Assembly: GCA_050084515.1 (NCBI GenBank) | Contig: CM114271.1 | Coordinates: 7,006,001-7,070,000 of the forward strand | DNA from: Blasia pusilla | Taxonomy: Eukaryota | Direction of reading: 5' to 3' | Length of the DNA stretch: 64,000 bases | In this document: piece after piece, positions 1 to 62,440 of the stretch | Numbering within the stretch: position 1 is the first letter of the stretch | Layout: the number at the start of each line of letters is the position of its first letter | Translations under genes and position numbers: made by a program | The notes under the pieces: model-generated | Seen by the model: the letters and a program-made list of their open reading frames with translations, nothing else | Told to the model about the DNA's origin: nothing | Database searches by the model: none

Positions 1-749
1 AAGGGAAGGAGAAGAGTGTGTCTAAGGCAACTTCATCCAAAAAGCATTATGGTGTAAAGTCACTTGATGTTGAACCATTGGAAAGCTCCAAGTGGTCCTC
101 CATATTTGGAAAGGAAGTCATGCGCTTGAGTAAGTGGAAAAAGTCTCACTTTCCTAGCAGTCATTGGGGAGAGAGATTCACTCCCAAACATGCTCCAGGC
201 TTCGAAGGTGGGGTAAAGGATTTCTTTCCTGCTGGAGCACACCTTGTGTTGTCAGACAAAGGGTATTATCCTGAACCAATTGAAGGTTTGGGAAACGACA
301 TTTTTATTGAAGTCCAAGGGACGCCCCCATATCAACTTAGAAGGACTAGTAACGAGAGGGTCAACATGAATGAGAGGGGATCTGCAAAGAAACGGCAGAG
401 ATCTCCGAACCTCAATGTAAAACAACATCACTTGCAATCTCATAGGACATCCCCTATTCAGGTAGATAGACCTACTACATGCCTCTTAGAACCACAGGAG
501 ATGAACAAGTCACCTCACAGAGCACCAACTGGAAAGAGTGTGGTAGTTAATATATAGATTTGGAGATGAGCTTCGTAGCTAGGAGAGAAAGAGTTTGCAG
601 ATGAATCATCTATAGCAAATGACACATGTAATGCTATCTTTGAGAAGCGAGCAATTTATGGAAGTTGTGGTATCCCGTGTATGAATTTCTGTTACAAGAC
701 TCTCCCTCCCTTGCTATCTCTCCTAAACTCAAGTACTATTGACTATGAC

Positions 750-1917: not shown

Positions 1918-1989
1918 TAAAAGCTGCCCTTGGAGCGGATGATCAGGCCCTCCACATCAGATTCATGGCAAGCTGCGGCTGCTAGGATG

Positions 1990-2187
1990 GCGGAGATGCC
2001 CGCTAGACCCGCTATAGAGTGTGCCATGGCTTCTCCTGGGGTAGTGTTGCTGGATAACCGGGGAGAGGTCTTCTAGTTGGTGAGTCTTGGAGGTAGAGCT
2101 TTTAGTTTGCAGTGCGTCTTGTTGGATTCATGAGCAGAGTTGATGTGGAGCGTTGTCCATTCCGGATACAGACATCCTTGGATGGAG
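1990..2187 (+). pseudogene. Older DNMT-Gypsy copy, left part (protease N-terminus), interrupted by the complete element
   Basis: Translates VLLDS...VERCPFRIQTSLDG, homologous to VLLDSGAQ...IEPCPFQIQTSIGG at 6070-6190. The homology resumes at 11940. Confidence 0.8.
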
Positions 2188-2666
2188 TGTCACATCTGAG
2201 TAGCCGATAGGCCGAGATCTATCGTGGATAGGGCGTAGGAGCCAGCGGACTATCTTGAGTGTAACTTTGTCCCACAGTGTCGGATAAGGTTGAGGATAGG
2301 TCCAATGTGTCAGGAACGTCGTTTCTGACGACTTTCATGTTGAGGTCTTTTACAGCCGGGTGACTTGTTGACCAGGTCACGTGCCCCAGGTAACCTGTGC
2401 GCGCAAGTTACCAAGGGAAGGGCTACTCTTAGGGGAAGAGCCTTTTGGCTCTTCCCAACCTATATAAGAGAGGAAGATGGCTTTCCTAAGCCATCTTTCT
2501 CATGTTGGGCCGTTGGAGCACCTCCCTTGTATGTGTGTGAGCTAGGACTAGGGTGCTAGCGTCCGGATTCCTTGATAGCACAGGGTGGACGAGGCTCGAT
2601 ATGCCGATGTAGATTGAGGAGTGGAATTTTAGGCCAAGTGTGCCGTTTTTACTACTCTTTATTTTT
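2188..2666 (+). repeat. Terminal repeat A1 (479 bp)
   Basis: Direct repeat of 11323-11801, about 17 mismatches by eye (~96% identity), mostly transitions. Confidence 0.95.
2459..2468 (+). promoter_or_regulatory. TATA box in repeat A, flanked by two hairpins
   Basis: CCTATATAAG. Upstream GGGAAGAGCC-TTTT-GGCTCTTCCC and downstream AAGATGGCTT-TCCT-AAGCCATCTT. Also present in A2. Confidence 0.65.
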
Positions 2667-2680
2667 ACATGAGAAAGATG
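2667..2680 (+). promoter_or_regulatory. Putative self-priming primer-binding site
   Basis: ACATGAGAAAGATG directly after A1 is the exact reverse complement of CATCTTTCTCATGT (2492-2505), ~30 nt downstream of the TATA box. No TGG-type tRNA PBS is present. Confidence 0.7.
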
Positions 2681-3862
2681 TCAGGGGGCTGCTGGGAATT
2701 TGTTGTTTGCAGGTAGGCAAGCGAGTTGCCTTGGTCGGGAGCCCTGGAGACGTGTGTGTGACGTTTTGTGTCATTTTTTCTGTTCGGAAGGCCGTGGGCG
2801 GAAGCGCTGTCCATTTTTCTCAGATTTTGCTGGTGCGGATTGATGGGGGACAGCAGCCGAGTGTAGCGTTTGGTTGGGCGTCGGATGTACGCAAGTGAGG
2901 GTGTCGAGAGAGAAGGAAAGGGCAGGTTTGGGTCTTGCAGCCGCCGGGTGGCTGTCAAGTAAAGGCGGCTAGGTTAGGTCGCGAAGGCTAGAGTTAGGAC
3001 GCGGGCAGCAGACAGACGCAGACAGGCGCGGACGGGCAAACAGCGAACAGGCGAGGGGCGCGGACGGCGGATGGCAGACGGGCGTGGACAACAGACGGAG
3101 AGAACGGACGGGCGAGGGCCGCATAGGACCGCGGCCCCCCCCCCTTCTTTCCCGCACTTGGGGAGGGCCGCATAGGGCCGCGGGCCCTCCCCTCCCTTCG
3201 TTGTTCTCCCGCAGGTTGGGAGCACGGGCCAAGGGGGCGCGGATGGTGGACGGCAGACGGGCGTGGACGATAGACGGAGAGAACGGACGGCGAGACCGTG
3301 GGCCCCCCCCCATTTTTTCAGAGTGAGATTTTGCACGGAGATTATTTTTGGAAGACTGAACTGACTGTCGGCGAGGTGGGTGAGTTACATCGACAGTTTG
3401 CGGGGGAGAGTTGAAGATGGAGTATCTGTTGACGGGAGGATCGACATGCTGGTCGAGGAGAGTGTTGTGTTGCGGAGATTGTCATATCATGTGGAGGAGT
3501 GCATATTGACGGTGCAGCAGGTTGGAGGGCGTGATCAGTTAACCCATTTGAGTCCCTTTTCTTGCACTTGTCGTGTGTGATTGAGAGTGTTGGGTATCGG
3601 GTAGTAGCTGGTGCTAGATGGGTGCAGTGATGGTGACGAGTGTAGATTCTTTTCATGTGTAGCATGTTGGTGGATATACGGCGGTTTCCGAGTAGGGGTT
3701 GCGTGTATGACCCGAGAGAGTGTCGCTAGGTTAGGTGAGTCATTTGGGAGGCTCATGGTGAGCCCGAGTGTTGAGCATGGGTGAGGCCGGGTATGTCATC
3801 ACGGGATTGACGTTAGCACATGTGAGCTAGTGAGGCGTGTGGGAGATTCTCGATGAGTCTGA

Positions 3863-5413
3863 GTGCTTGAGTGGGTGAGACAAGGTTTGTCATCACGGCG
3901 TTCTTCGAGGGTTCGGAAGAACGGGGTAGCGCGAGCAGTGACACGGAGTGAAGTGAGATACCGAAGGGTTACCAGTGAGGAGCTCCCTCGACATCCATCC
4001 GTGACTGGATCGTCGTCATTGGACACTGGGTCTGGTGACGAGATCATCGACAAAGACAGTAGTACTTGGCAAGAGATGGACGACATGGGCCATTGGGGCA
4101 TGCGTCGTTTCTCGGGTGCAGTGGGCACCATCGACTTAGATAATTTCATCCAGGAGTTCGACATATGGTGCGACTTCCAAGAGATACGGACCCCGACACG
4201 GTTCAACCCTTTCATGGCATGGAAGGGGTTGTTCCAGCACTTGGAGGGTCCTCTGATGGATGACTACATGGAGTTTCGATCACTATATTCAGTAGAGATC
4301 GATGCCTGGAGGATGTATTGGGCTCCAGGGTATGTGTCCACTAGTGGTCGCGAGGCATATGATGGGATTGTGAGAGGAGAGAGACCCACACCATTAGCCC
4401 GGAGACTAGATGGAGAGGAGGGCAGTGAGACAGGCGATGTGGCAAAGACCTTTGGTGGTAGAGGGCCACCCAGCTTCATCCCCACAATGGAGTTCTTCCG
4501 ACATTTGGGGAAGAGCTACCAGGGCGTACGCACCGACAAGCTGAAGAGTCTACAGGATTTTCAGCGACGATCGGGTGAGAGTCTGAGAGAGGCCTTCACA
4601 CGCATGAGGAGGCTGATCATTGCTACGTTTGGAGGATCGAGGCGCGTCGGTCCAGTCAAGATTGGTCTGGGGTTACGGGACCGAGAACTACGGAGGAGAG
4701 TCGAGATGCGTGTCTTTGATTCACACAAATGGAAGCCCACATTGAAGGTGGTCTTTGAGTTGTCTGAGCGTATTGAGCTCAACATGAGTGAGGAGCAGGT
4801 AGTGACCGCTGGATTTTCTCGATAATCGACGGGTCCACGAGCGGCGGTGACCCCACAGGTGCCACAGCGAGCACCAGTACCACGAGAGCGGGCTAGTGTG
4901 CCTAGAGAGTAGGGCGGGTACCGTGAGCCTATGAGGCAACGACCCCCACCTACATATGTTGCCCAACAGGGACCGATGTGGTCTTGTTGGACGTGTGGAG
5001 GGGCCCATAGGCAGAGAGATTGCCCACAGCATGGGAGAGGACCACCAGCGCCTCCGATTGCTCAGGAGCCACAATGGATGGCCCCACCACATCACCAGTA
5101 TGACCATTGCCACAGATATGGTCACACTAGGGATAGATGTTTTGACCTTCGCCGAGGGGCACGTCCAGAGGTAGGCCGAGGGCCTAGGGGCGGTCGTCCT
5201 GGAGGAGGTCAGGGAGTTCTTCCTGGACGTGGTGGTAGAGGACCACCACCAGCCAGAGGAGATGGAGCAAGAGCACCAGAGCCGGCGCTTCTCTCACGCA
5301 TCGATCAGTTGGAGCAGAGGATTGCTGCCATGACGATGATGCAGCTTAGGGAAGACATGGAGCTGCGAGCAGCTAGTGTGACTCCAATCGCTACCTCTTA
5401 CCCGACGCGGTGA
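3863..5413 (+). pseudogene. gag: Gag (capsid-like region plus two zinc knuckles), disrupted
   Basis: ORF 3863-4825 (...FSGAVGTIDLDNFIQEF...FQRRSGESLREAFTRM) and ORF 4931-5413 with CWTCGGAHRQRDC and (Y)DHCHRYGHTRDRC knuckles plus RGG-rich segments. Confidence 0.8.
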
Positions 5414-6029
5414 GGATCTCTCCAGTATGGGATTCATGTGTAGTGCAGCCCAGGTTGAGGCAGCTGAAGTGGTGACTCGGGGTGCTGCGAGAGGCACCGA
5501 GCCATCGAGAGGTGGAGTTGAGACCCGACCCACGAGAGGGGACCGATGGGGCTGCAGCCAGGGTTCCCTGATCGTTCACATTGTCGGAGGCACTACACAC
5601 ACCATCGATGGTGCCTCGGCGACCAGCGGTGCCTCGATTCGAGGCACCTACATCGCGTCACAAGGAGTTGGAGTGACAACTCCTATGCCGGCTCAGTGGA
5701 GTCGAGTGTCGACTATAGTGTTGAGGTGGCCACTAGAGTGAGTCAGACTCCGCTATTTTCCGCCTTAGAGTTGGCGACGTGGGGAGTTGGACCAGGTGAG
5801 GTGTTCGGTTGGCCGCCACGTTGTGTGGCGTGGAGAGATGGCGCTTCTTGTTTAGAGGTAGTTAAGGAGGTGGTGGACTTGCCCTCGAGCGGTGCTTGGG
5901 ACGTTCCCCATAGAGTCGTGGCATGCGGCGGCAGCGAAGTTGGTAGATATGCCAGCTCGACCGGCCATAGAGCGAGCAGTGGTGACACCTGGAGTAGTGT
6001 TATTGGATAACTGAGCTGGAGTATTTCGC

Positions 6030-6420
6030 TTGGTTAGTCCAAAAAGGACGGTATACCACCCGCACCGCGTCCTACTTGATTCGGGAGCGCAACCCTTGAT
6101 GTTAGGGAAGGCGGCGTGTTTAGCGTTGGGGTTACGGAAGGCCAAAATTGAGCCTTGTCCCTTCCAGATACAGACCTCGATTGGGGGCGTATCACCCACT
6201 CAGTATATGACTCGACAGGAGATTGTTGTCAAAGTCCAGCCAGAGCATGCGACGGATAGTGCTATGGTGCGCACACGTGCGATTACGACACCAGCTGAGT
6301 CGTACGATGTGTTGGTGGGGAGTACAATGTTATATCCCCTAGGATTCATCCTTGACTTCTGGGAGGAGACCGTTGCTTATCGGCCAGGATGGCGGTCAGG
6401 TGACGGTCGGATGAGTCAAT
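6030..6420 (+). CDS. Retrotransposon aspartic protease domain
   Basis: VLLDSGAQ active site and SYDVLVG motif. Confidence 0.85.
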
Positions 6421-6794
6421 TACCCGTGCAGTTTGCAGGACGAGGTGGTCGATCACGAGGCGAGTCTGTGACCACGTTGGCGGCTTTCACAGGTAGTGTT
6501 AGCTGGCCAGGAGAGTTGTTGGAGGGGAACGCACATGCAGAGGATGTCCCAGTAGCGGATAGTCCCACGGAGAGACAGGCCATGGCGGGTGTCTCTTCCC
6601 ATGTTAGCGATACCTCTTCACCATTATGGGGTACGACTCGAGAGCTACAGAGGAGTGCCGACGACCTCGTGAGGCAGGCGTGGAGTCATGTTTTTATCCC
6701 TGAGCAGCAAGAGTCACGTGGCGATCGGGCTCTTGGAGTGGAGACGATGACCCCACTAGATACCACACCTGTTGTGTGGCAGTGCCCAGAGAAG

Positions 6795-7735
6795 GGTGTT
6801 AGATCTCTTCGGAGGGATTAGCACCGGATTGGCTGCCATATTGCGTGGCATACGGGTGCATCAGTACCTTTATGTGGAGAGAGATGAGACCGCGCGGCGA
6901 GTATCATTACGTCACGTGGCGAGATTGGTCCAGAGGTATCCTGAGTTGTTGTTGGTATCTGCAGTACGGGGATACCAGCATACGCTATCCGCCGACATCT
7001 CTTTGGTGGGGGTGCAGGATCTGGATAGAGTTGGCACCATTCATTTGGTGATTGTTGGATGGCCATGTCAGGGTCATTCATCAGCTGGCCGAGGATTTGG
7101 ATTGCAGGATCCGAGGTCAGGGGTATTTTGGGAGATGCTGCGAGTATTACGACACTTGCAGGAGAGTCAGATATGTTCTCCAGCATACATTTTGGAGAAC
7201 GTGCCATTGTTGGGAGACACTCGTGCACGTGTGATGATGAGTGTACATCAGGTGAGGTCCTGGTTGGGACCTACTATGTTGTTAGATGCAGCGAGAGTTG
7301 GGTCACGTGCCCATCGTCCACAACTGTGGTGGACGAACTTGATACCATCAGAGGTACTGAGTCAAGCCTACAGTGGAGTCCAGAGAGCACCACATCTCAC
7401 AGTGGATGTTATTTTGGGCTCAGGGCATCGATCTCAAGTGATGACACGCGATGATAGACCACCGTTGGCCACGGCCAATAGGGTGGGGGAGTTAAGGGTA
7501 GCCTTACCTACGTTGGTGAGCTTCCCAGCATCCCATGCCTTTCGTCAGGGAGGGCCAAGCATGATTTGGGATGAGGTGACCGGAGTATTGGAGGAGCCTA
7601 CAGTAGATGAGCGTGAGCGCGCCATGGGGTTCACTACCGGTACTACGGCGGTGCCAGGGATGACTGAAGCATCACGGAGATAGGTGTTGGGGCAGGGGAT
7701 GGACCTCAACTGTCTCACATGGATAGTCAGCCTAG
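6795..7735 (+). pseudogene. C5 DNA cytosine methyltransferase domain within Pol (frameshifted at its start; one nonsense change before motif X)
   Basis: Motif I VLDLFGGI, motif II YVERD, motif IV GWPCQG (7057-7074, catalytic Cys), motif VI ILENV, motif VIII HRPQLWWTN, motif IX ERERAMGF, motif X-like VLGQGMD after TAG 7681. Confidence 0.92.
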
Positions 7736-8099
7736 GTACGGCTTAGCAGAGACGGATGCGAGTGTCATCCATGCCGTCACGTCCACGAGTTGGACCACTG
7801 CCTACAGGGTATGTACAGGCATTGGCTGGGGGCGAGATGATAAGAGATGGACTTCCTGGGACGTCGTTCGAGCAGAGAGTGCGAAGGCGGCTAGAGTAGC
7901 ACATGTTCATTTTTCGGATGTGGAGCATGGTGTAGGCGATCAGAGTGGATTGGGTGTTGCGGAGGTGGCTAGGATTGCTACATAGCAACCAAAGCCAGAG
8001 GTTGCGTCCTCTCCGAGTGAGGTCACGATGGAGACTTGGGAGCCTGTGATAGGTCTCAAGTTGATAGGAGGAGAGCGATGGCGAGTTCATAGGTTTCTA

Positions 8100-9470
8100 A
8101 GAGGGCATGTTTGTTGTTTTGCCTTCAGTATGAGAGACTTGGGTACGCCAAAGGGTCCCGGGATACGGATTGAGTTGGCTAGTGATACGCCAATCTTTCG
8201 TCGACCCTACAGGTATTCTGATATGGAGCGAGCCTTGATTTGAGCGAGAGTCGGGACTTGTTGGAGGCAGGACTTGTGGAGTTATCACATGGGGAGTATG
8301 CATTTACCACAGTCATGCCGGCGAAGAAGGATATGTATGGCAATTGGACGGATAGGCGGATGTGTGGAGATTACCGTCCTATCAACCGACAGACGAGGTC
8401 AGATTGATATGCCATGCCTACTCCTAAGGAGATCTTTGATGCGGTAGGGCATACAAAGATCTTCAGTACTTTAGATCTCCGTGGTGACTATCATCAGCTT
8501 CCTATCAGGTTGGAGGACAGGGAGAAGACAACATTCTGGGGGATAGATCGGTCCGGGAGAGATTGCTTGTATCAGTGGCGGTTCTTACCATTTGGATTGA
8601 AGAACGCGCCTACGGAGTTTCAGAGAGTGATGGATAGGATTCAGGCTGGCTTGGATTTTGTACGATGTTACATAGATGATATTCTTATCTTCAGTTCCAC
8701 GGTTGAGGAGCATGAGCGACACTTGGAGGAGGTGTTTCGGCGATTGCGATTACATGGGGAAGTTACATCCAGGCAAGTGCAGATTCTTTCAGGAGCAGAT
8801 TGAGTACTTGGGACACACCATATACCCGAGTGGGTTAGGCGTTCAGAAAACGAAGGTAAAGGCTATTGCGCAGATTCCACGCCCTACAGATGTGAGTCGA
8901 GTCCGAGCATTTCTTGGACTGGCGAACTTCTATCGACGGTATGTCAAGGGTTTTAGTGCGATCGCAAAGTCTTTGACCTTGTTGACGAGACTTGATCAGG
9001 TGTGGTTGTGGGGAGATGATCAGGAGCGAGCATTTCAGGAGCTCAAGGACAAGTTGACGTCCTCACCCATTTTACAGAGACCGGTTAGGGGTCGCCCATT
9101 CCAGTTACATACGGATTGGAGCATGTTGGGTCTAGGAGCAGTGCTTACTCAGAGGGATGACGAGGAGAGGGAGTTCATCGTGGCTTACGCGAGCCAATCG
9201 AACAACATTGCAAAGGCAAAGTACAACTCCTATGAGGGAGAGTGCTTGGCTGCAGTGTGGGCCGTGGCATATTTTAGGTGCTATTTGTTCGGCAACCCTT
9301 TCACACTTATCACTGATCATCAGCCGTTGAGGTGGTTGATGGAGTCCGACAAGCTTACGGGAAAGCTTGCCAGGTGGGCTCTATTACTACAAGAGTATGA
9401 GTTTGAGGTGGTTCATAGGCCAGGTTGGCTGAACCAGGATGCGGATGGGTTGAGTCGTAACCCATGTCCG
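8100..9470 (+). pseudogene. pol: Reverse transcriptase and RNase H (Ty3/Gypsy type)
   Basis: RMCGDYR, FSTLDLR..YHQ, LPFGLKNAP, YIDD (8669-8680). RNase H TDWS...EGEC...TDH...ADGLSR. Confidence 0.95.
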
Positions 9471-9723
9471 AGTCAGAGAGACGACACAGGAGCTCGATGG
9501 CACGGAGAGAGTGATGAGGAGATGGTGCCCGGTTGGCATGCATCCGCCTATCTTTGTTGGTTGACTATGGCAGGTTAGCCACAGGTGATGACTCCAGTGG
9601 TGGGATTGGATGATGAGTCTTTGGATCCGGAGGTTAGTGAGGAGGCGACAGGTGGTCGTGATATCCATGACAACGTGGAGGTTGTGGAGTTATTGCGCAT
9701 TGGCGTCATTGTGAGTACAGTGA

Positions 9724-11106
9724 GTGCTAGGGAGCGGGATCGGATCCTTCCTTCAGAGAGCCAAGAGGTTCAGGTGGGAGGGGACACACATTTTACGGGT
9801 ATGGGAAGATGGTAGGATACGAGTGGTACCTCATCCTTCCCAGCAAGCACGTGTAGTGCGACATGCCCATGAGGAGTTGGGACATTTTGGAGTAAAGCGT
9901 ACGTTCAACTTACTCCAGGTTCAGTATAGGTGGCGCGGCATGCATACTGGGGTACAGCAGTTTGTGGCCAGATGTATGGTATGTGACAGAGTGCGAGCAT
10001 CCTTCAATGCTCCCACTCCACAGTTACATCCTTTGCTGATTATGGGTTTAGGTTATCGGTGGAGTTTAGACTTTGCGGGACCTTTGCCATTGACAGGGCG
10101 TCATCATAGGTACGTGTTGGTCATGGTGGAGCATTTCTCCAAGTGGATAGAGTTGGTGGCACTACCAGACAAGGCGAGCAAGGGAACAGCTTATGCGTTT
10201 CTAGATCGTGTGCTTAGTCACTTTGGTGCACCGGCGGAGGTGTTGACTGACCAGGGTACCGAGTTCAGGGGAGAGTTTCAGGCCTTGTGTGATCAGGCGC
10301 TGATAGATCACCGCACCACATCCAGGGATCATCTTGAGGCGGACGGGTTGGCGGAGAGAGTGGTACAGACGGTGAAGAGAGGATTGCGCAAGTATGGCTT
10401 GCAGCGGGGACAGTTGAGGGAGTGGGACCTACAGTTGCCATGGTTGGCTATGGGTTATCGCTTTAGTTGGCATGCATCCTTGACATCATTTTCACCGTAC
10501 TTTTTGCTCTTTGGGAGAGAGCCAGATTTACCTGCAGCGATTCGAGGTGACATGGCGGAGGTGTTAGATCTTGATGATCCAGATGTGTGGGTGCAAGCAT
10601 GTTCTCAGAGGGCAGAAGTTTTTCGTAGAGTTATGGCTATGGCCTTTGAGAACTTAGCTATTGCTCAGCATACAGATACATTGAGGTACGCGACCATTCA
10701 TGGAGGAGGTTATTGTCCAGGGATTAGGAGGTTTCATCTTGGAGATTACGTGTATTTACAGCAGGCGGCACCCACGACGCTAGATGTCACTGCAGGGCGC
10801 ACGATCCTACGTGTGCGCGAGGTATTACCGACCGGAGTCCTCATGTTGGAGGGACGGGATGGTATGGTTTGGAAGGATCATGTGCGCAATTGTGCGCCAT
10901 GTCATCTTCCAAACGTAGATGGGATGGTGGATCCAAGCTTGGCAGTGGTACTTGCAGGCTTGAGGTGTATGTTGTGCGGATCTGCGAGGGGTGCAGCCAC
11001 CATGTTGGTATGTGATGGTTGTTCTCGAGGGTGGCATATGTCATGTCTGACCCCCCCTCTTGATGTGGTTCCCACGGGACGATGGATGTGTCCGAGATGT
11101 GTATAG
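9724..11106 (+). CDS. DDE integrase with C-terminal PHD finger
   Basis: HHCC (HEELGHFG...CMVC); D (SLDF), D (TDQG), E (LAER). C-terminal C4HC3 CMLC...VCDGC...WHMSC...WMCPRC. Confidence 0.93.
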   Translation: MLGSGIGSFLQRAKRFRWEGTHILRVWEDGRIRVVPHPSQQARVVRHAHEELGHFGVKRTFNLLQVQYRWRGMHTGVQQFVARCMVCDRVRASFNAPTPQLHPLLIMGLGYRWSLDFAGPLPLTGRHHRYVLVMVEHFSKWIELVALPDKASKGTAYAFLDRVLSHFGAPAEVLTDQGTEFRGEFQALCDQALIDHRTTSRDHLEADGLAERVVQTVKRGLRKYGLQRGQLREWDLQLPWLAMGYRFSWHASLTSFSPYFLLFGREPDLPAAIRGDMAEVLDLDDPDVWVQACSQRAEVFRRVMAMAFENLAIAQHTDTLRYATIHGGGYCPGIRRFHLGDYVYLQQAAPTTLDVTAGRTILRVREVLPTGVLMLEGRDGMVWKDHVRNCAPCHLPNVDGMVDPSLAVVLAGLRCMLCGSARGAATMLVCDGCSRGWHMSCLTPPLDVVPTGRWMCPRCV

Positions 11107-11173
11107 GGTAGTAGGTCATGTCAGAGCGATGTGATATTTTCTATCTGGAGTTAGGGGGATCCAACTGCGAGCT

Positions 11174-11182
11174 AGGGGGGCG
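11174..11182 (+). promoter_or_regulatory. Polypurine tract
   Basis: AGGGGGGCG immediately 5' of B1. An equivalent TAGGGG tract precedes B1 in all four copies. Confidence 0.8.
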
Positions 11183-11320
11183 GTTGTGTGATCTCCATGT
11201 ATATGTATGAGTTGATTTTTGTACATGTGTGGATCGATCCGTGTGTGGGGAAGATCAGTGTTGTGTGGTGTAGATGTGACGAGCGATGTATGTTGTGTAG
11301 CGATATGTATGTGCACGACA
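11183..11320 (+). repeat. Terminal repeat B1 (138 bp)
   Basis: Direct repeat of 11802-11939; ends GTGCACGACA. Confidence 0.93.
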
Positions 11321-11322
11321 GC

Positions 11323-11801
11323 TGTCACATCTGAGTAGCCGATAGGCCGAGATCTGTCGTGGATAGGGCGTAGGAGCCAACGGACTATCTTGAGTGTTAC
11401 TTTGTCCCACAGTGTCGGATGAGGTTGAGGATAGGTCCATTGTGTCAGGAACGTTGTTTCTAACGACTTTCATGTTGAGGTCTTTTACAACCGGGTGACT
11501 TGTTGACCAGGTCACCTGCCCCTGGTAACATGTGCGCGCAGGTTACCAAGGGAAGGGCTACTCTTAGGGGAAGAGCCTTTTGGCTCTTCCCAACCTATAT
11601 AAGAGAGGAAGATGGCTTTCCTAAGCCATCTTTCTCATGTTGGGCCGTTGGAGCACCTCCCTTGTATGTGTGTGAACTAGGACTAGGGTGCTAGCATCCG
11701 GATTCCTTGATAGCACAGGGTGGACGAGGCTCGATATGCCGATGTAGATTGAGGAGTGGAGTTTTAGGCCGGGTGTGCCGTTTTTACTACTCTTTATTTT
11801 T
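11323..11801 (+). repeat. Terminal repeat A2
   Basis: Copy of A1, joined to B1 by a 2-nt spacer forming the palindrome GACAGCTGTC. Confidence 0.95.
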
Positions 11802-11939
11802 GTTGTGTGATTTCCATGTTTATGTATGAGTTGATTTTTGTACATGTGTGGATTGACCCGTGTGTGGGGAAGATCGGTGTTGTGTGGTGTAGATGTGACA
11901 AGCGATGTATGTTTTGTAGCGATATGTATGCGCATGACA
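11802..11939 (+). repeat. Terminal repeat B2
   Basis: Copy of B1; ends CGCATGACA, followed by TSD GGAG. Confidence 0.93.
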
Positions 11940-13417
11940 GGAGCGAGTACCACACAGTATATCACCTGACAAGAGGTTATGGTGAGGATTTTCCCGGGAC
12001 ATCCTACACATGATCCGTGGTGTGAGCCAAGGCGATAGTAATTGATGCACGGTCCTACGACATCTTGGTTGGAGGAGTAGAGTTATACCCGATGGGGTTT
12101 TTCTTAGATTACTGGGAAGAGTGAGCATCCTATAGACCAGGATGGCAGTCATGTGATGGGCGCCTTAGCTCATTACCCATTTGATTCACAAGTGCAGTGA
12201 TCGAGCGACGGCCAAGAGAGATGGCGACCTTCGCAACATTTAGCAGTGCCATCACTTGGCCTAGTGATTTGATTGAGGGACATGTCCATGCAGAGGATAC
12301 TCCCATTCCTAAAATTTCTATGGACATGAGTGCATTGGTAGTCGCATCAGTCCGTGGAGGAGAGGTTCCTCTTTGGAGCTTGAATGAGGAGCTTCGACGC
12401 TTAGCCATTGACCATGTGCAGACCGCGTGGAGCGAGACATTTCCACCAGAGTGTGATGGGTCAGAGGAACCCCACGTAGGCAGGAGTGTTGCTATGACCC
12501 CTTTGGATGCTACTCGGATTGTGTGGTACGTCCCAGAGGAGGGTATTTGGGTGTTGGATCTCTTTGGAGGGATTAGCACTCGGTTAGCTGTTGTTTTGCA
12601 CGCTGGAGTGCGCGTGCAGCAATACTTGTATGTGGAGATTGATGATGTTGTGAGGCGCGCTTCACTTTACCATGTGGTGCAGTTACGCCTGCGTTTTCCC
12701 AACTTGTTGTCTACGTCCGCCATTCAGGGTTCCCTACAGAGGGATATTTCATTGTTGGGATGCAGGACATGGAGCGCGTAGGGACCATAAACTTGGTCAT
12801 TGCTGGTTGGCCATATGAGGGCCAGTCGAGTGTTGGACGGGGTAATTGATTAGCTACCTCTCGTTCCATGTTATTTTGGGAGATGATGCGGATCTTGCGA
12901 CACTTCCAAGAGCATCAGTCTCGTCTTGCAACATACATCCTAGAGAATGTACCAATTTTGGGCGATTCGAGGTCCTGTGTGGTGATGATTGCATATCAGA
13001 TGCGCGTATGGATCGGCCTGAAAATTTTGTTGGATGCGGCGAGTATGGGTTCACAAGCACATTGCCCGCGTCTTTGATGGACTAACTTGGTACCACACGA
13101 GGTATTGCGAAGGTCATAGACGAGAGTGGAGCGCCCCTCCAATTTGTTGGTGGATTCTATATTGGATCCAGGCCGTCGATCATAGGCAGTGAGGCACGAT
13201 GATCGTCCATCGTTGAGTATGGTCAACAAGATTGGCATGCCACGTGTAGCCTTTCCCACATGGGTGAGTTTTCCCGATTCCTATGCATTCAAGGAGGTCG
13301 GAGCCGGCTTGCTTTGGGATGAACTGGTACAAAGGTTGGTGGAGCCCAACGCCGATGAGCAAGAGGGAGCAATGGGATTCCCCACATGAGTGACGGAAGT
13401 ACCATCACTATCAGAGG
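11940..13417 (+). pseudogene. Older DNMT-Gypsy copy, right part (protease C-terminus and decayed DNMT)
   Basis: GASTTQYIT continues the protease; VLDLFGGIST, GWPYEGQS (catalytic C>Y), YILENV, EQEGAMGF. Confidence 0.85.
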
Positions 13418-51572: not shown

Positions 51573-54500
51573 ATTGAGCCTTGTCCCTTCCAGATACATA
51601 CCTCGATTAGGGGCGTGTCACCCACGCAGTATATGACTCAACAAGAGATAGTTGTCAGAGTTAAGCCAGAGCATGCAACGGATAGTGCTATGGTGCGCAT
51701 CCGTGCGATTTCGACACGAGCTGAGTCGTACGATGTGTTGGTGGGGAGTACAATGCTATATCCCCTAGGATTCATCCTTGACTTATGGGAGGAGACCGTT
51801 GCTCATCGACCAGGGTGGAGGTTAGGTGACGGCCAGATGAGTCAGTTATCCATGCAGTTTACGGGACGAGGTGGTCGACCACGAGACGAGTCTGTGATCA
51901 TATTGGCAGCTTTCATAGGTAGTGTTAGCTGGCTGGGAGAGTTGTTGGAGGGGAACGCACATGCGGAGGATGTCCCAGTAGCGGATAGTCCCACTGAGAG
52001 ACAGGCCATGGTAGGTGTCTCTTCCCATGTTGGCGAGACCTCTCCACCATTGTGGGGTACGACTCGAGAGTTACAGAGGAGTGCCGACAACCTCGTGAGG
52101 CAGGCCTGGAGCCATGTTTTTATTTCGGAGCAGAGCGATTTGAGTGGCGATTGGGCTCTTAGAGTGGAGGCGTTGACACCACTGATTACCATACACGTTG
52201 TGTGGAAGTGTCCAGAGGAGGGTATTAGATCTCTTCAGAGGGATTACCACGTGATTGGCTGCGGTATTATAGGCGGGCATACGAGTACATCATTACCTTT
52301 ATGTGGAGAGAGATGAGACGCGGCAAGTATCATTATGTCACGTGGCGAGATTGGTCCAGAGGTATCATGAGTTGTTTTCGGTATGTGCAGCACGAGGGTA
52401 TCAACATACACTACCTGCCAACATCTCTTTGGTGGGTGTGTAGGATCTGGATAGAGTTGGCACCATGCATTTGGTGATTTCTGGATGGGCATGTTAGGGT
52501 CATTCATCAGCTGGCCGAGGGTTTGGATTGCAAGATCCGAGGTCAGAGAAGTTTTGGGAGATGCTATGAGTAGTGCGCCACTTGCAAGAGAGCCAGACAT
52601 GTTCTCTGGCGTACATTTTTTAGAACGTGTCGTTGTTGGGAGACACTCATGCACGTGTGATGACGAGTGTGCATCAAGTGATGTCCTCGTTAGGACCTGC
52701 TGTGTTGTTAGACACAGCAAAAGTTGGATCACGTGCCCATTGTCCATGATTATGGTGGACGAACATGATACCATCAAAGGTATTGAGTCAAGCATACGAT
52801 GGAGTCCAGAGAGCACCACATCTCACAATAGATGCTATTTTTGGCTCAAGGCGTCGATCTCAAGTGGTGACGTGGGATGATAGACCACCGTTGGCGATAG
52901 CCAATAGGATGGGGGAGTTGAGGGCAGCCTTACCTACGTTGGTGAGCTTCCCAGCATCCCATGCCTTTCGTCAAGGAAGGCCACGCATGATTTGGGATGA
53001 GGTGACCTGAGCATTGGAGGAGCCTACAGTACATGAGCACGAGCGCGCCATGGGGTTTGCTATGGGTACAACGGCGGTGCCAGGTATGACCAAGGCATCA
53101 TAGAGACAGATGTTGGGGCAGACGATGGATCTCAACTATCTCACATGGATAGTCAGCCTAGGTATGGCTGAGTAGAGATGGATGCGAGTGTCATCCATAT
53201 CGTCACGTCCACGAGTTGGAGCATTGCCTACAGGGTCTGTACAAGCATTGGATGGGGGCAGGACAAGGAGAGTTAGGCATCCATGGACTTCTTGGGACGT
53301 TGTATGAGTAGAGAGTGCAAAGGCGACCAGGGCAACACATGTTCTTTTTTGCATATAGAGCATGGTGTAGGAGGTCACACCGGAGTGGCTGTTGCGGAGG
53401 TGGCTAAGGTTGCTACACAGCAACATAAGCCAGAGGTTGGGTCCTCTCTTAGTGAGGTCACGATGGAGACTTAGGAGCCTGTGATAGGTCTCAAGTTAAC
53501 AAGAGGAGACCAACGGAGGATTCATAGGTTTTTGAGAGGGCATGTCAATTGTTTTGCCTTCAGTATGAGAGATTTGGGTATAGTGAAGGGTCCCGAGATA
53601 CAGATTGAGTTGGCTAGTGATACGCCAATCTTTCGTCAACCCTACAAGTATTTCCATATGGAGCAAGCCTTGATTCAGAGCACGAGTCAAGACTTGTTGG
53701 AGGTAGGACTTGTGTACTTACCGCATGGGGAGTATGCATGTGCCACAGTCATGCTAGCGAAGAAGTATATGTATGGCAATTGGATGGATAGGTAGATGTG
53801 TGGAGATTACCGTCTTATCAACCGATAGACGAGGTCAGATTGGTACGCCATGCCTACTCTTAAAAATATCTTTGATGCGATAGGGCATGCAAAAATCTTC
53901 AGTATTTTAGATCTCCGTGTTGGCTATCATCAGCTTCCTATCAGGTTGGAGGACAAGGAGAAGACAACATTATGGGGGATAGATCGGATCGGGAGATATT
54001 ATTTGTATTAATGGCGGTTCTTACCATTTGGGTTGAAGAACGCGCATGTGGAGTATTAGAGAGTGATGGATAGGATTTTGGCTCGCTTGGATTTTGTACG
54101 GTGTTACATAGATGATATTCTTATTTTTAGTTCCACTGTTGAGGAGCATGAGGAACACCTAGAGGAGGTGTTTCGGCGATTGTAGTTACATGGACTGAAG
54201 TTACATCCAGATAAGTGCAGATTCTTTATTTGGAACACAGCGGATACCCGAGTGGGTTAGGTGTTCAATACACAAAGGTGGAGGCTATTGCACAGATTCC
54301 ACGCCCTACAGATGTGAGTCGAGTCTGAGCATTTGTGGGACTGGCGAACTTCTATCGACGGTAGGTCAAGGGTTTTAGTACGATTGTGAAGTCTTTGACC
54401 TTATTTACCAGACTTGATGAGGTTTGGTTGTGGGGAGATGATTAGGAGCGAGCATTTCAAGAGCTCAAGGATAAGTTGACATCCTTACCCATTTTAGAGA

Positions 54501-57355
54501 GACCGATTAGGGGTCGCCCATTCCTGCTACATACAGATTGGACCATGTTCGGTCTAGGAGTAGTGCTTACTCAGAGGGATGACGAGGAAAGGGAGTTCCT
54601 TTTGGATTATGCGAGCCGATCGAACAACATTGGAGAGGCAAAGTACAACTCCTACAAGGGAGATTGCCTAGCTGCAGTGTGGGCCGTGGCACACTTCAGG
54701 TGCTATCTATTCAGAAACCCTTTCATACTTGTCATTGATCATCTGCCATTTAGATGGTTGATGGAGTCCGACAAGCGTACGGGAAAGCTTGCCAGGTCGG
54801 CTCTATTACTACAAGAGTATGAGTTCGAGATGGTTCATAGGCCAGGTCGGCTAAACTAGGATGGAGATGGGCTGAGTCGTAACCCATATGCGAGTTAGAG
54901 AGACGACACAAGAGCTCGATGGCTCGGAGAGAGTGATGAGGAGATGGTGTCTGGTTAGCATACATCAACATATCTTTGTTGGTTGACTATTGTAGGTCAA
55001 TCACTTTTGGTGATTCTAGTGGTGGGATTGGATGATGAGTCCTTGGATTTGGAGGTCACTGAGGAGGTGACACGTGGTCGTGATATCCATGACGACATGG
55101 AGATTGTGGAGTTCTTGCGTACTGGCGTCATAGCGAGCATAGTGAGTGTTAGGGAGCGGGATCAGATCCTATAGAGAGCCAAAAGGTTCAGGTGGGAGGG
55201 GATTGGATCATATTTTGCGGGTATGGGGAGATGGTAGGATACAAGTGGTACCTCATCCTTCCCAACAAGCATGTGTAGTGCGATATACCCAAGAGGATTT
55301 GGGGCATTTTGGAGTAGAGCGTACTTACAACTTACTCCAGGTTCAATATTGGTGGCACGGCATGCATATTGGGTGCAGGAGTTTGTGGCCCGATGTATGG
55401 TATGTGACCAAGTGCGAGCATCCTTCAATGGTCCCACTACGCAGTTACATCCTTTACTGATTATGGGTTTAGGTTATCGGTATAGTTTAGACTTTGCGGG
55501 ACCTTTACCATTAATGGGGCGTCATCACATGTACGTGTTGGTCATGGTGGAGCATTTTTCCAAGTGGATAGAGTTGGTAGCACTACCAGAAAAGAAAGCG
55601 AGGGAATAGCCTATGCATTTCTAAATCGTGTGCTTAGTCACTCTGATAAATCGGCGGAGGTGTTGATTGACCAGGGTACCAAGTTCAGGGGAGAGTTTCA
55701 GGCCTTGTGTGATGAGGTGCTAATAGATCACCACACCACGTTTGGAGATCATCCAGAGGCGGATGGGTTGGCGTAGAGAGTAGCACATACGGTGAAGAGA
55801 GGATTATGCAAGTATAGCTTGCAGCGGGGACATTTGAGGGAGTGGGACCTACAGTTGCGATGGTTGGCTATGGATTATCGCTTGAGTCGCCAAGCATCCT
55901 TGGCGTCATTTTTTCTGTAGTTTTTTCTCTTTGGGAGAGGGCAACATTTACCTGCAGCTATTTGACGTGACATGGTAGAGGTGTTAGATCTTGATGATCC
56001 AGATGTGTGGGTACAAGCATGTTCTCAAAGGATAGAATTTTTTCGTAGAGTTATGCTTATGGCCTTTGAGAACTTAGCTATATTTAGCATAGGGATATAT
56101 TGAGGTACACGACCATTCATGGAGGAGATTATCGTTCAAGGATTATGAGGTTTCATCTTGGAGATTACATGTTTTTACAGTAGACGGCACCCACGACGCT
56201 AGATGTCACTGCAGGAAGGACGATTCTACGTGTGCGCGAGGTGTTATCGATCGAAGTCCTCATGTTGGAGAGACATAATGGTATGGTTTGGAAGGATCAT
56301 GTGCGTAACTGTGTGCGATGTCATCTTCCAAATATGGAGGGGACAGTAGCTCCGAGCTTGGCAGTGGTACTTGCAGGCTTGAGGTGTATGTTGTGCGGAT
56401 CTGTAAGGGGTGCAGCCACCATGTTAGTATGTGATGGTTGTTCTCGAGGATGGCATATGTCATGTCTGACCCCCCCTCTTGATGTAGTTCCCATAGGAGG
56501 ATGGATATGTTCGAGATGTATATAGGGTAGTAGATCATGTCAGAGAGATGTGATATCTGCTATCTAGAGTTGGGGGGATCCAATTACCAATTAGGGGGGC
56601 GTTTGTGTGATCTCCATGTATATGTATGAGTTGAATTCTTTACATGTGTGGATCTACCCGTGTATGAGAAAGATTGGTATTGTGTTGTGTGGATATGACC
56701 AACAATATATGTTATGTAGCGATGTGTATGCGCACCACAACTATCACATCTTAGTAGCTGTTAGGTAGAGATCTATCGTGGGGAGGATATACAGAGCCAG
56801 CGGACTTTGTCGAGTGTAAATTTGTCCCGAGATGTCGAATGAGGTTGAGAATAGGTCCGTTGTGTCAAGAACGTTGTTTCAAACAACTTTCTTCTTGGGA
56901 TCTTTCACAACCAAGTGACTTGTTCAACAAGTCACCCACCCTTGATAACCTGTGCGCGCATGTTACGAGGGGGGTTGCTATTTTTAGGGGAAGAGCCTTT
57001 TGGCTCTTCCTACATCTATATAAGGGAGGAAGATGGCTTTCTCAAGCCATTTTTCTCATGTTGGGCCCTTGGAGTAACATTCGTGCTCGGATGTGTGAGT
57101 TAGGATTGGGTACTAACGTCTGGATTCCTTAATAGCACAGGGTGGACGAGGCTCGATATACCGATGTAGATTGAGGAGTGGAGTTTTAGGCCGGGTATGT
57201 CATTTTTACTCTAATTTTTTTTATGATCTCCATGTATATGTATGAGTTGATTTCTGTACATGTGTGGATCTACCCGTGTGTGGGGAAGATTGGTGTTGTG
57301 TGGTGTGGATGTGACCAGCGATGGATGTTGTGTAACGATATGTATGTGCACGAAA
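51573..57355 (+). mobile_element. 5'-truncated close copy of the DNMT-Gypsy (PR-DNMT-RT-RH-IN-PHD) with B1-A-B2 end
   Basis: Colinear with 6147-11939. DNMT ~52220-53140 with motif IV reading GWAC*. PHD ends at 56525. B1 56604-56739, A 56742-~57221, B2 ~57222-57355. Confidence 0.92.
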
Positions 57356-61500: not shown

Positions 61501-62440
61501 TGAATCTATCCTTGAGCATGTGAAATGCTCTCTCATACTTGTCCCCCCACTACCACTCCTGATCCACCTTGGTTAGCAAGGCTAGCTGCTTCACAATCGA
61601 ACTAAAACCCTTGACGTACCATCGATAGAAGTTCGCCAATCCCATGAATGCACGAACTTGACTCACATCTGTAGGGCGTGGAATGCATGAAATAGCCTCT
61701 ACCTTTGTCTGTTGCATACCAAGGCCCCCTGGGTATATCGTATGACCCAAGTACTCAATCTGGTCGAAGAAGAACTTGCACTTGTCTAGATGTAGCTTCA
61801 GCCCATGTAACTATAATCGTCAAAATATCTCCTCTAGATGTCGCTTATGCTCCTCAAGTGTGGCGCTAAAGACTACGATGTCATAAATATAACACCTAGC
61901 AAAATCCATATCTGCCAAGATCCTATCCATGACCCTTTGAAACCCAAATTGTAAGAACCGCCATTGATATAAACAATCCTTCCCATAAGGATTGATGCCC
62001 CAAATGCCTTCTTATGCCAGTCCTCCAATTTGATAGGCAACTGATGGTATATGGCTCGTAAATCCAATGAATTGAAGACCTTTGCATGTCCAATCGCATC
62101 AAAGCTCTCCTCACAGGTGGGCATGGCATACCTATCAGATTTCGTCTCCCGATTGATACGTTGGTAATCTCCACACATCCACCTATCAGTCCTGTTGCCA
62201 TGCACATCCTTCTTGGTAGGCATGACAGTGGCAGATGCATATTCTCCATGCCACATCTCCACTAGTCTTGCTCCAACCAAGTCCTCGTTCCTACTCTAAA
62301 TCATAGCTCTCTCCATGTCACTAAACGTGTAGGGTCGTCGGAAGATCAGCGTGTCACTTGAAAACTCAATGCGGACCCTTCAACTTACCCAAATCATGCA
62401 TACTAAATGCAAAACATCTTTGTCATGACCATACGAATTA
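58537..62440 (-). mobile_element. 5'-truncated diverged family member (RT-RH-IN-PHD) with B1-A-B2 end
   Basis: Pol fragments and PHD (CMLC...CDGC...WHMAC). B2 58537-~58661, A ~58662-59152, B1 59155-~59281, PPT 59283-59292. Junction GACA-AC-TATCACATC on the minus strand. Confidence 0.88.

Follow-up and report, generated by a model that had tools for sequence, protein, structure and literature searches.

Split direct repeats in the order A1-internal-B1-A2-B2, from which a circle with the B-A junction present twice is implied, are shared by the Ngaro/PAT-type elements, which encode a tyrosine recombinase and leave no target site duplication (TSD). Among Gypsy elements the split layout has been noted once before, without explanation: de Mendoza et al. 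(2018) describe the repeats of Klebsormidium Gypsy-Dnmt3 as 'the same as that of a DIRS retrotransposon' (Fig. 4c legend) and state an A-coding-B-A-B order for DIRS-type elements (PMC5890265). The main text of that paper is silent on TSDs, primer site, polypurine tract (PPT), internal palindrome, junction heterogeneity and A-int-B copies, and its supplementary figures may hold more. KnitGypsy-Dnmt3 resembles the element described here in having DIRS-like repeats and a Gypsy pol that includes a Dnmt3-like methyltransferase (PMC5890265). Its host is Klebsormidium nitens, whereas the best named matches of the present integrase are from liverworts; identity to K. nitens proteins with rve and PHD domains is 53%. 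A preliminary description of the locus knew of no Gypsy element for which this had been described, which holds for the mechanism behind the split layout, no account of which was found in the literature, but not for the layout, already reported in PMC5890265.

The window, i.e. the whole 64,000-nucleotide stretch of Blasia pusilla DNA that was analysed, contains a bryophyte-type Gypsy retrotransposon (Table 1), best read as a degenerate Ty3/Gypsy copy that belongs to the streptophyte 'Gypsy-Dnmt3' kind and is predicted to be self-priming. By repeat search, direct reading, pairwise alignments and blastn, its order is A1-internal-B1-GC-A2-B2, with 96.45% identity between A1 and A2 over 479 bp and 93.5% between B1 and B2 over 138 bp (alignment and blastn). 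The element begins with TGTCA at 2188 and ends with TGACA at 11939, and no copy of B was found upstream of A1 in the window copy by blastn and sequence comparison. It is nested within another element, whose protease lies at 12014-12556 and is 43% identical to that of the inserted element. The translation of the left flank ends ...CPFRIQTSLDG at 2186 and that of the right flank starts GASTTQYIT.QEVMV at 11940; joined, they correspond to CPFQIQTSIGGVSPTQYMTRQEIVV in the inserted element's own protease, and therefore restore one protease frame after removal of one GGAG. RNA reads from paralogous, uninterrupted copies of the host element join 2183 to 11940 with 4 letters shared (13 reads in run X21, 4 in X22), providing an independent fix of the insertion boundaries and of the 4-bp duplication. 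The preliminary description had given A only at the left end and B1-A2-B2 at the right, ends of TGTCA...TGACA with a GGAG TSD, and flanks that restore a single protease sequence; alignment and blastn recover the same coordinates, and direct reading, the empty-site RNA and the CPFQIQTSIGGVSPTQYMTRQEIVV match bear out the rest.

Table 1. Coordinates of the split-repeat element and of its relatives in the window
Feature	Position	Strand	Remarks
TSD GGAG, left copy	2184..2187	+	direct reading; RNA empty-site joint
A1	2188..2666	+	479 bp; 3' part of U3 including TATA box, then R-U5; first letters TGTCA
TATA box	2461-2468	+	within A1; 31 nt upstream of self-primer 2492-2505
Predicted transcript 5' end / self-primer CATCTTTCTCATGT	2492..2505	+	perfect reverse complement of 2667-2680
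Internal region	2667-11182	+	
Putative self-priming primer binding site ACATGAGAAAGATG	2667..2680	+	adjoins end of A1
Leader and presumed gag region	2681..6014	+	degenerate
Protease region	6015..6821	+	LLDSGA motif in ORF translation
Dnmt3-like C5 cytosine methyltransferase domain	6760..7683	+	PF00145, E = 5e-9
Reverse transcriptase and RNase H	8408..9578	+	PF00078, PF17917, PF17919; two overlapping frames
Integrase	9724..11106	+	open 460-aa frame; HHCC zinc domain, DDE core, C-terminal PHD finger; PF17921, PF00665, PF00628
Polypurine tract GCTAGGGGGGCG	11171..11182	+	adjoins B1
B1	11183..11320	+	138 bp; 5' part of U3; last letters CGACA
Internal attachment site (putative)	11316..11327	+	palindrome GACA-GC-TGTC at 11317-11326 spanning B1/A2 boundary
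B1/A2 spacer GC	11321-11322	+	2 nt
A2	11323..11801	+	479 bp
A2/B2 joint	11796..11808	+	predicted U5 terminus fused to predicted U3 terminus
B2	11802..11939	+	138 bp; last letters TGACA
TSD GGAG, right copy	11940..11943	+	direct reading; RNA empty-site joint
Second family copy	51573..57353	+	86% identical, 5'-truncated
Second copy 3' end		+	PPT-B(56603-56739)-AC-A(56742-57222)-B(57224-57353)
Related family copy	58537..62416	-	74% identical over RT-IN
Related family 3' end		-	PPT-B(59282-59155)-AC-A(59152-58665)-B(58664-58537)

The pol region encodes, in order, a protease, a Dnmt3-like methyltransferase, reverse transcriptase, RNase H and a PHD-finger DDE integrase. No Pfam match was obtained for the protease region or for the leader/gag region, the latter carrying a 57-nt direct repeat (3055-3111 and 3234-3290, 179 bp apart). 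DNMT3 is the best match of the methyltransferase, and the homologue in L040, whose domain set is the same, matches DNMT3A/3B/3C chains. Reverse transcriptase and RNase H are split over two overlapping frames, which therefore indicates a frameshift in the window copy. The integrase is of the DDE type, as had been stated beforehand: HHCC and rve domains were found, D116, D176 and E211 are invariant in an alignment of 14 sequences, and its closest solved structures are the Ty3 and prototype foamy virus (PFV) integrases, with PFV as second-best. A scan for a tyrosine recombinase gave no match in any of the 44 ORFs of at least 70 aa.

Across families, the site adjoining A1 can pair with a complementary stretch located 30-32 nt downstream of the TATA box; the paired length is 13-14 nt in the window copy, 16 nt in L009 and 11-12 nt in L040, L058 and L060. 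The same arrangement in different letters in L009, L040, L058 and L060 reads as covariation. RNA folds close on the primer stem in the window copy (z = -2.65) and in a second fold (z = -3.95); against the prediction, the RNA reads gave no start at 2492. At the other end, a G-run adjoins B1 in 21 of 21 rows of the junction alignment. Since the primer site adjoins A1 and the PPT adjoins B1, the predicted cDNA is BA-internal-BA, of which the integrated copy is a circular permutation opened at GACA-GC-TGTC; here too the earlier reading is upheld.

Judging from the copies collected, the split layout is common to the whole clade and extends beyond the window copy. All six full-length split-repeat copies, from the window and from metagenome contigs, have the order A-int-B-NN-A-B, and none of the 10 independent 5' ends shows B upstream of A. 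Of the 10 copies for which both ends are present, eight have a perfect 4-bp TSD, one matches at three of four positions, and one (L071) has no TSD. Roughly half of the independent 3' ends (~20 of ~38) carry B only, giving A-int-B; both ends are present in four of these copies, and three of the four have a TSD. A-B-A-int-B, the mirror permutation, was not encountered at 10 independent 5' ends, and full-length copies number 6 BAB to 0 ABA. Neither the A-int-B 3' ends nor the missing mirror product had been foreseen.

The B/A spacer is 2 nt long in 21 of 21 rows, within a region free of gap columns over 120 aligned columns from 9 copies, whereas length differences in the A/B joint fall precisely at the predicted cDNA termini. 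The joint states of the L040 family are 0, -1, -2 (AT microhomology), about -8 (L059/60/61) and a large deletion (L080); the L009 family shows +A, and -1 plus a filler of about 21 nt (L011). These states are dispersed over a family tree that is star-like and carries no support values, and many length variants are found among the genome's own short contigs. Most A/B joints differ by only 0-2 nt, and such small differences may be due to inheritance and slippage. In L062 and L064 the break in the element falls precisely where A ends, as expected if the end of A were a real DNA terminus. The A2/B2 joint behaves like an end-joined pair of cDNA termini.

On sequence grounds, then, the integrated ends are the two halves of the LTR-internal palindrome GACA/GC/TGTC, and not the predicted cDNA termini, which lie within the element, fused head to tail, at A2/B2. 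The explanation that probably fits the whole is a self-priming Gypsy-Dnmt3 element whose integrase would cut the palindrome inside the LTR, GACAGCTGTC, in end-joined cDNA. Transcription would begin within A, ~31 nt downstream of its TATA box; the leading ~14 nt of the RNA would fold back onto the site adjoining A1 to prime the minus strand, and plus-strand synthesis would proceed from the G-run adjoining B1. The cDNA LTR would then be B-GC-A and the cDNA BA-internal-BA, whose termini could be joined into a 2-LTR circle or its equivalent. Integrase may nick after each CA of the palindrome copy beside the primer site, yielding two CA-3'OH ends with 2-nt GC overhangs, and transfer of both to the target with a 4-bp stagger would lose the GC spacer and make the 4-bp duplication. 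For A-int-B copies, the source could be a 1-LTR circle, cleavage of both palindromes, or later recombination between B1 and B2.

The case for this mechanism is drawn entirely from integrated copies. That the integrase acts on an LTR-internal site is very probable, while the chances that its substrate is a closed circle are about even. A head-to-tail concatemer, or a linear cDNA cut at one palindrome and followed by host end-joining, gives the same product as a circle. The earlier proposal of an internal palindromic att site used in a circle is supported in part: very probably as to the site, whereas the sequence fits a circle, a concatemer or repaired linear cDNA equally. Because the two palindromes of a symmetric 2-LTR circle are identical, A-B-A-int-B copies are expected, and that they are missing counts against the symmetric-circle model. 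The B-only 3' ends also count against it, as they are explained only with an added second route or frequent deletion.

An unlikely but serviceable alternative is that a single intasome cuts the 5'-LTR palindrome of linear BA-int-BA cDNA and inserts both CA ends, leaving host end-joining to seal the natural termini into A2/B2. The TSD, an attachment site inside the LTR and an A/B joint that varies and is of the microhomology type are all accounted for equally, and its integrated copies would be the same as those of the circle route. In the textbook model of reverse transcription, the left LTR is the earlier of the two to become double-stranded, which, if applied here, could explain the sole use of the 5' palindrome and the missing A-B-A-int-B copies. 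However, each insertion would leave a chromosome break to repair, and we know of no retroviral-type integrase reported to work by this route. Quite improbable is a joining of the termini by reverse transcriptase itself, in which end-to-end template switching produces concatemers or over-long cDNA that are cut at two successive palindromes. The +A and 0 to -2 joints do look like non-templated addition and microhomology-guided switching, and palindromes one unit plus one LTR apart enclose A-int-B-A-B, but the 21-nt filler, the -8 joint and the large deletion are more like end-joining, and A-B-A-int-B would be expected here too.

The age and degeneracy of the window copy (A1/A2 96.5% identical, frameshifted pol) and its position inside another element might suggest a conventional BA...BA or AB...AB element rearranged after insertion, an assembly artefact or a nested insertion, yet this is highly improbable: the order, 2-nt spacer and 4-bp TSDs recur in three window elements and in independent metagenome contigs, across families only 46-75% identical in integrase, RNA of paralogues shows an empty site with a single GGAG, and B1 and A2 are not separated by a TSD. 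An assembly artefact in particular was rejected on finding the same architecture in two further window elements (56603-57353, +; 59282-58537, -) and in independent metagenome contigs. Just as remote is integration of a circle by a DIRS/Ngaro-type tyrosine recombinase acting in trans, with the DDE integrase irrelevant, for although the repeats are arranged as in Ngaro/PAT elements, the TG...CA termini and the 4-bp TSDs in 8 of 10 copies typify DDE strand transfer, the integrase frame and D,D35E residues are kept across the clade, and no recombinase was found in the element (44 ORFs scanned; L040 domain set).

With its DDE integrase, TG...CA ends and 4-bp TSDs, the window element is alike in topology to the Ngaro/PAT-type elements and not a member of them. 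A DDE enzyme acting on abutted ends a few bp apart in a circle, with the spacer lost on insertion, is familiar from IS3, IS30 and IS256; these copy-out-paste-in elements are bacterial DNA transposons without reverse transcription, and the likeness is one of mechanism only. In Tf1/Sushi and plant Tcn1 elements, as here, the primer site is the complement of the nucleotides predicted to begin the transcript, and self-priming has been predicted for the Tcn1 elements of moss and club-moss (PMC6317226), but these have ordinary LTRs and a chromodomain in place of split repeats and a PHD-finger integrase. The PFV and HIV-1 integrases are reported to cut the palindrome at which the LTRs of a 2-LTR circle meet (PMC1180852, PMC1905944, PMC4372172), and so offer a retroviral-type DDE integrase cutting a CA...TG palindrome in circular DNA, as proposed here. 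In the retroviruses of these reports the palindrome coincides with the circle junction, and integration by way of it is at most a side path, whereas in the window element the palindrome lies within the LTR, the circle junction would be elsewhere, and the route appears to be the one that yields replication-competent copies. The split order implies that an ordinary DDE integrase inserts at an LTR-internal palindrome and not by the termini of the DNA copy.

The 5' end of the window element, the Gypsy copy at 2188-11939, consists of repeat unit A only, with no B upstream of A1, and its 3' end reads B-GC-A-B. This A1-internal-B1-GC-A2-B2 layout, as proposed in the preliminary description, is borne out by repeat finding, direct reading, pairwise alignment and blastn. 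The 479-bp A units are 96.45% identical and the 138-bp B units are 93.5% identical. The element opens with TGTCA and closes with TGACA, and has the TG...CA termini and the short target site duplication (TSD) of Ty3/Gypsy elements. Two complete identical terminal LTRs, a canonical trait of the same group, are found in none of the six full-length split-repeat copies, this one included. The leader contains a GC-rich 57-nt direct repeat (3055-3111 and 3234-3290, 179 bp apart), and the segment 2764-3427, almost without coverage in RNA or other genome contigs, appears specific to this copy. Sense transcripts of the family occur in the RNA data. Across 2100-12050, the copy differs from family reads and contigs mostly by transitions (G>A 157, C>T 130, A>G 107 and T>C 84 in the RNA sequencing run X21, and 13-28 per transversion), an excess expected for methylated, deaminating repeats.

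Features of the window element and of related copies in the window
Feature	Position	Basis or remark
GGAG, two flanking copies	2184-2187 and 11940-11943	
A1	2188-2666	repeat finding, direct reading, pairwise alignment, blastn
Protease, LLDSGA motif	6015-6821	matches the host element's protease
C5 cytosine methyltransferase (PF00145)	6760-7683	Pfam
Reverse transcriptase	8408-8803	Pfam
RNase H	8676-9578	Pfam
Integrase: HHCC zinc domain (PF17921), rve core (PF00665), C-terminal PHD finger (PF00628)	9724-11106	Pfam
B1	11183-11320	repeat finding, direct reading, pairwise alignment, blastn
GC dinucleotide spacer, B1/A2	11321-11322	
A2	11323-11801	repeat finding, direct reading, pairwise alignment, blastn
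B2	11802-11939	repeat finding, direct reading, pairwise alignment, blastn
Second copy, 86% identical, 5'-truncated	51573-57353	3' end PPT-B-AC-A-B
74%-identical family, 3' end of split-repeat form	59282-58537	minus strand

The left flank of the insertion translates to ...CPFRIQTSLDG and the right flank to GASTTQYIT.QEVMV; when joined, they match CPFQIQTSIGGVSPTQYMTRQEIVV of the inserted element's own protease. Since the flanks rejoin as a protease, the element inserted into the protease of a related one, and truncation does not account for the lack of a 5' B, as had been argued from the outset. In RNA-seq runs labelled as the same species, position 2183 is directly followed by 11940, with an overlap of four letters, in 13 reads of X21 and in 4 of a second run, X22. 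These reads are transcripts from uninterrupted paralogues of the host element, the one interrupted by the window copy, and therefore supply an independent empty site with a single GGAG in support of the proposed TSD. The host element (window 1-2187 and 11940-13425) is a distinct but related Gypsy-Dnmt3 element with 43-59% protein identity in PR and DNMT, and is itself degenerate: its protease carries a stop and frameshifts. Farther downstream, a G-rich stretch (15248-15720) holds two short tandem-like duplications with units of 64 and 86 nt, about 96-99 bp apart. The stretch 16000-47000 is AT-rich (35-42% GC) relative to the retroelement blocks (47-57% GC). The minus strand carries one more related RT-IN segment at 47291-49931; about 1.5 kb downstream of it, two 97-nt direct repeats spaced by 753 bp (44960-45809) may be another B-A-B end.

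By Pfam, the Ty3/Gypsy pol order PR-RT-RNase H-IN is present in the window copy and in L040, a relative's locus on a metagenome contig, with a Dnmt3-like domain between PR and RT. The protease of the window copy has no Pfam match, and because its pol domains lie in different frames this copy is called degenerate. In the better preserved L040, a single long pol frame, broken by three in-frame stops, covers DNMT, RT, RNase H, HHCC, rve and PHD; the solved structures matching its methyltransferase best are DNMT3A/3B/3C. The integrase is of the DDE type, as the first reading held, and more precisely of the retroviral kind with an HHCC zinc domain that is usual in Ty3/Gypsy elements. In addition to the HHCC and rve domains, residues D116, D176 and E211 are invariant in 14 aligned integrases with spacings of 60 and 35, and the closest solved structures are the Ty3 (E = 6e-19) and PFV integrases. 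The profile search for a tyrosine recombinase that had been proposed covered all 44 stop-to-stop ORFs of at least 70 aa on both strands of the window element at E <= 0.1 (the first 10 at 0.01). None of the 44 gave a match; the sole sub-threshold matches were chance ones (YmgL, Toxin_4, UL97 and others) far under the cut-offs. The pol pieces of L040 gave none either. The PHD finger sits at the integrase end (window 9724-11106; L040 10202-11359), where chromoviruses have a chromodomain, which suggests targeting through histone-tail reading. The IN-PHD form is widespread, occurring in liverworts, Sphagnum, Klebsormidium, Haematococcus and Chromochloris among the 120 matches listed.

Turning to reverse transcription, the 14 nt after A1 (2667-2680) are the exact reverse complement of 2492-2505, a segment that starts 31 nt after TATATAAG (2461). 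The same arrangement is summarised for Tf1-type self-priming in PMC6317226. The pairing is kept with other sequences over 16 nt in L009 and over 11-12 nt in L040, L058 and L060, where a TATA box lies 30-32 nt upstream of the self-primer sequence. The same pairing with different sequences across families amounts to compensatory covariation. When folded as RNA, the predicted R-U5-primer-site segments are closed by the primer stem (z = -2.65 for the window element, z = -3.95 for L040), and a G-run polypurine tract (PPT) adjoins B1 in 21 of the 21 3' ends listed. Complementarity, folds and G-runs thus uphold the earlier placement of the primer site against A1 and of the PPT against B1. A primer site beside the 5' repeat and a PPT beside the 3' repeat are what Ty3/Gypsy elements have, but here the G-run adjoins B1 and not the terminal repeat unit. 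Under the standard model, the LTR produced by reverse transcription would be B-GC-A, and the predicted cDNA would be BA-internal-BA with its termini at the B start and the A end. A further PPT where B meets A, which would reduce the LTR to A, was considered and rejected: the boundary is not purine-rich and B2 would be left unexplained. A primer site after B was likewise set aside, as B2 runs into unrelated flanks.

A scan of metagenome contigs with the integrase alignment gave 80 loci, 46-80% identical, and those with identical flanks were merged before counting; the end-structure counts rest on these contigs and the window. All six full-length split-repeat copies (window, L009, L040, L058, L060, L080) read A-int-B-NN-A-B, where int is the internal region and NN any 2-nt spacer. 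Every one of 10 independent 5' ends starts with TGTCA, without an upstream B or A-B. Perfect 4-bp TSDs flank eight of the ten copies with both ends (GGAG, AAGG, GGTC, ACCT, ATCA, TGTT, TACA, TCAT); the TSD of L060 matches at three of four positions and L071 has none. The tabulation of ends and TSDs over further copies, called for in the preliminary description, is largely in its favor. The B/A spacer is 2 nt long in 21 of 21 rows and is either GC or one of the transition derivatives AC, AT and GT, and an intact junction forms the 10-bp palindrome GACAGCTGTC. Given this constant spacer and the lack of a TSD between B1 and A2, the idea that the layout is of tandem or nested origin was rejected. 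The window element is real and its layout is family-wide; the possibility of an assembly artefact, raised at the outset, is ruled out by the recurrence of the layout across the family.

Among the matches listed, the closest named relatives of the integrase are from the liverworts Calypogeia, Marchantia and Riccia, and more distant ones are from Sphagnum, Klebsormidium and green algae. The last 35 or so nucleotides of B together with the start of A (11284-11328) form a core conserved among otherwise diverged families, and RNA reads of another family match this core alone and differ to either side of it. The integrase probably binds at this core.

Among nine independent copies of the L040 family, the surroundings of B1/A2 have no gaps in 120 aligned columns. 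Around PPT/B1 in the same family, gaps occur in the G-run and in one other internal column, ragged alignment ends aside. The A2/B2 boundary of this family has several length states exactly at the predicted cDNA termini: a complete A end with a complete B start (L040, L041), -1 (L045), -2 via AT microhomology (L033, L035, L058, L070, L075) and about -8 (L059 = L060 = L061). L080 has lost the A2 end together with the B2 start through a deletion at the joint. In the L009 group, another family among the relatives, the joint carries one additional A (L009, L019, L012) or, in L011, is at -1 with a filler of about 21 nt. In the window element's own family, short host-genome contigs, mostly of about 100-150 nt, add many variants, placing T, A, GC, GT, AT, ATTA or ATTTT between 11799-11804 and 11183-11189. 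The joint states are scattered over the L040-family tree, which is star-like and displayed without supports. If the A2/B2 joint were never copied to progeny, every insertion would make its own, and the observed variation looks like such insertion-by-insertion joining. In one further insertion represented on two contigs (L062 2284, L064 3985), the 3' B-A unit ends exactly at the predicted U5 terminus and is followed by an inverted internal segment. The break marks the A end as a real terminus, and the structure resembles an autointegration or snap-back product.

As read from sequence, the integrated ends are the two halves of an LTR-internal palindrome, with the predicted cDNA termini joined to each other in the element's interior; a 4-bp duplication accompanies insertion, and a conserved DDE integrase is encoded with a recombinase absent from the ORFs scanned. 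In the mechanism proposed, the integrase would nick 3' of each CA in GACA/GC/TGTC. Because the site is palindromic, the nicks would fall 2 nt apart and both CA-3'OH ends would be exposed together. These ends would then insert with a 4-bp stagger, and the GC overhangs would be lost in repair. For the product to read A-int-B-GC-A/B, the cDNA termini must be joined. Joining could precede integration, in a 2-LTR circle or a concatemer, or follow it through host repair of the break between the cDNA termini, and all three routes would be expected to yield integrated copies that look alike. The circle is favoured as the substrate by analogy, since the PFV and HIV-1 integrases are reported to cleave palindromic LTR-LTR junctions (PMC1180852, PMC1905944). 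The preliminary description had a DDE integrase acting on an internal palindromic att site of a 2-LTR circle and knew of no such description for a Gypsy element. Its logic is largely right; the circle is unproven, and the claim of novelty was too strong, the layout being in print for a relative. In its broadest form, the proposal is that a green-lineage Ty3/Gypsy clade obligatorily uses DDE cleavage of an LTR-internal palindrome in a 2-LTR circle, such that proviral ends never coincide with those of the reverse transcript; we would put this a little below an even chance.

Some observations sit less easily with the circle. B alone forms the 3' end in about 20 of about 38 independent cases, and A-int-B copies without A2-B2 (L001, L004, L044, L071 and about 16 more loci) are approximately as common as split-repeat copies. 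Three of the four with both ends visible have perfect 4-bp TSDs (TGTT, TACA, TCAT). Such copies could arise from 1-LTR circles, from cutting of both palindromes, whether the cDNA is linear or circular, or from later recombination between B1 and B2 of the inserted copy. Without a 3' R they should be dead, and without any terminal repeat they would escape LTR finders. Furthermore, as a 2-LTR circle has two identical palindromes, mirror copies of the form A-B-A-int-B are expected, yet none is seen among 10 5' ends and the full-length copies number six A-int-B-NN-A-B to zero. One may speculate that the 5' LTR is completed earlier in reverse transcription, that A-B-A is lost faster by A/A recombination, or that the intasome is assembled asymmetrically. 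Under the circle model B2 has no role in the next cycle; a hypothetical poly(A) signal across A2/B2 would give it one.

With respect to known systems, KnitGypsy-Dnmt3 of Klebsormidium nitens is described as having the repeat structure of a DIRS element and the domains of Gypsy (Fig. 4c legend, PMC5890265, de Mendoza et al. 2018). Like KnitGypsy-Dnmt3, the window element combines DIRS-like repeats with Gypsy domains, and both it and L040 have a Dnmt3-like C5 methyltransferase (PF00145) inside pol; the integrase of the window element is 49-53% identical to K. nitens proteins. The layout is thus already in print for a relative, to which the window copy adds a member from a host that is liverwort-like. 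A 2026 preprint mentions 'streptophytes (Gypsy-DNMT3)' without discussing structure. For a split-repeat or permuted-LTR Gypsy mechanism, the literature search returned only the 2018 figure legend (PMC5890265). It found no paper on an LTR retrotransposon of Marchantia whose integrase has a PHD finger, and term counts in the main text of the plant LTR classification paper PMC6317226 gave none for PHD, methyltransferase or Marchantia. Within the literature searched, which took in the main text of the 2018 paper, no description was found of the TSDs, the primer-site/PPT logic, the internal palindrome, the variable joint or the A-int-B copies. The proposed mechanistic reading appears to be new.

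In Tf1/Sushi-type elements the primer site is complementary to the first nucleotides of the element's own RNA. The window element may prime itself likewise, its candidate primer site being complementary, with covariation, to the predicted RNA start; unlike theirs, its integrase ends, as does that of L040, in a PHD finger (PF00628) and not in a chromodomain. In textbook LTR retrotransposition, both ends of a linear cDNA are used and circles are seen as dead ends; integration through a circle junction was once proposed for retroviruses and later abandoned. Here, the anatomy of many independent insertions places the DDE-used ends inside the LTR and the cDNA termini at a joint, which would make a circular or end-joined molecule the intermediate that is productive. 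If the proposal is true, the clade is a natural case of circle-junction integration; the element would make the old question of whether circular retroelement DNA integrates directly testable in a natural system, with GACAGCTGTC as a concrete, testable substrate for integrase biochemistry.

The split direct repeats A1-int-B1-A2-B2 are shared with the DIRS order (Ngaro/PAT type), from which the window element differs in having 4-bp TSDs and no tyrosine recombinase among the ORFs scanned; to our knowledge, DIRS-order elements of this type leave no TSD. The window element therefore departs from LTR retrotransposons in one defining feature, the two complete terminal LTRs, and from the DIRS order in two, the recombinase and the absence of TSDs. 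Split direct repeats accordingly do not by themselves identify a tyrosine-recombinase element. Copies of this kind would be misclassified or overlooked by annotation pipelines, since to an LTR-pair finder they present half an LTR at the 5' end and one and a half at the 3' end or, in the A-int-B form, no repeat at all. Ngaro/PAT elements are assumed to use a circle topologically equal to the one proposed here, and by this topology the element would work like Ngaro/PAT but with a DDE enzyme. A possible evolutionary link between Gypsy and DIRS-like elements follows, blurring the boundary between LTR and tyrosine-recombinase retrotransposons. Should the proposal hold, the clade would parallel Ngaro/PAT elements with an integrase of its own, and would be a plausible living link between the two groups.
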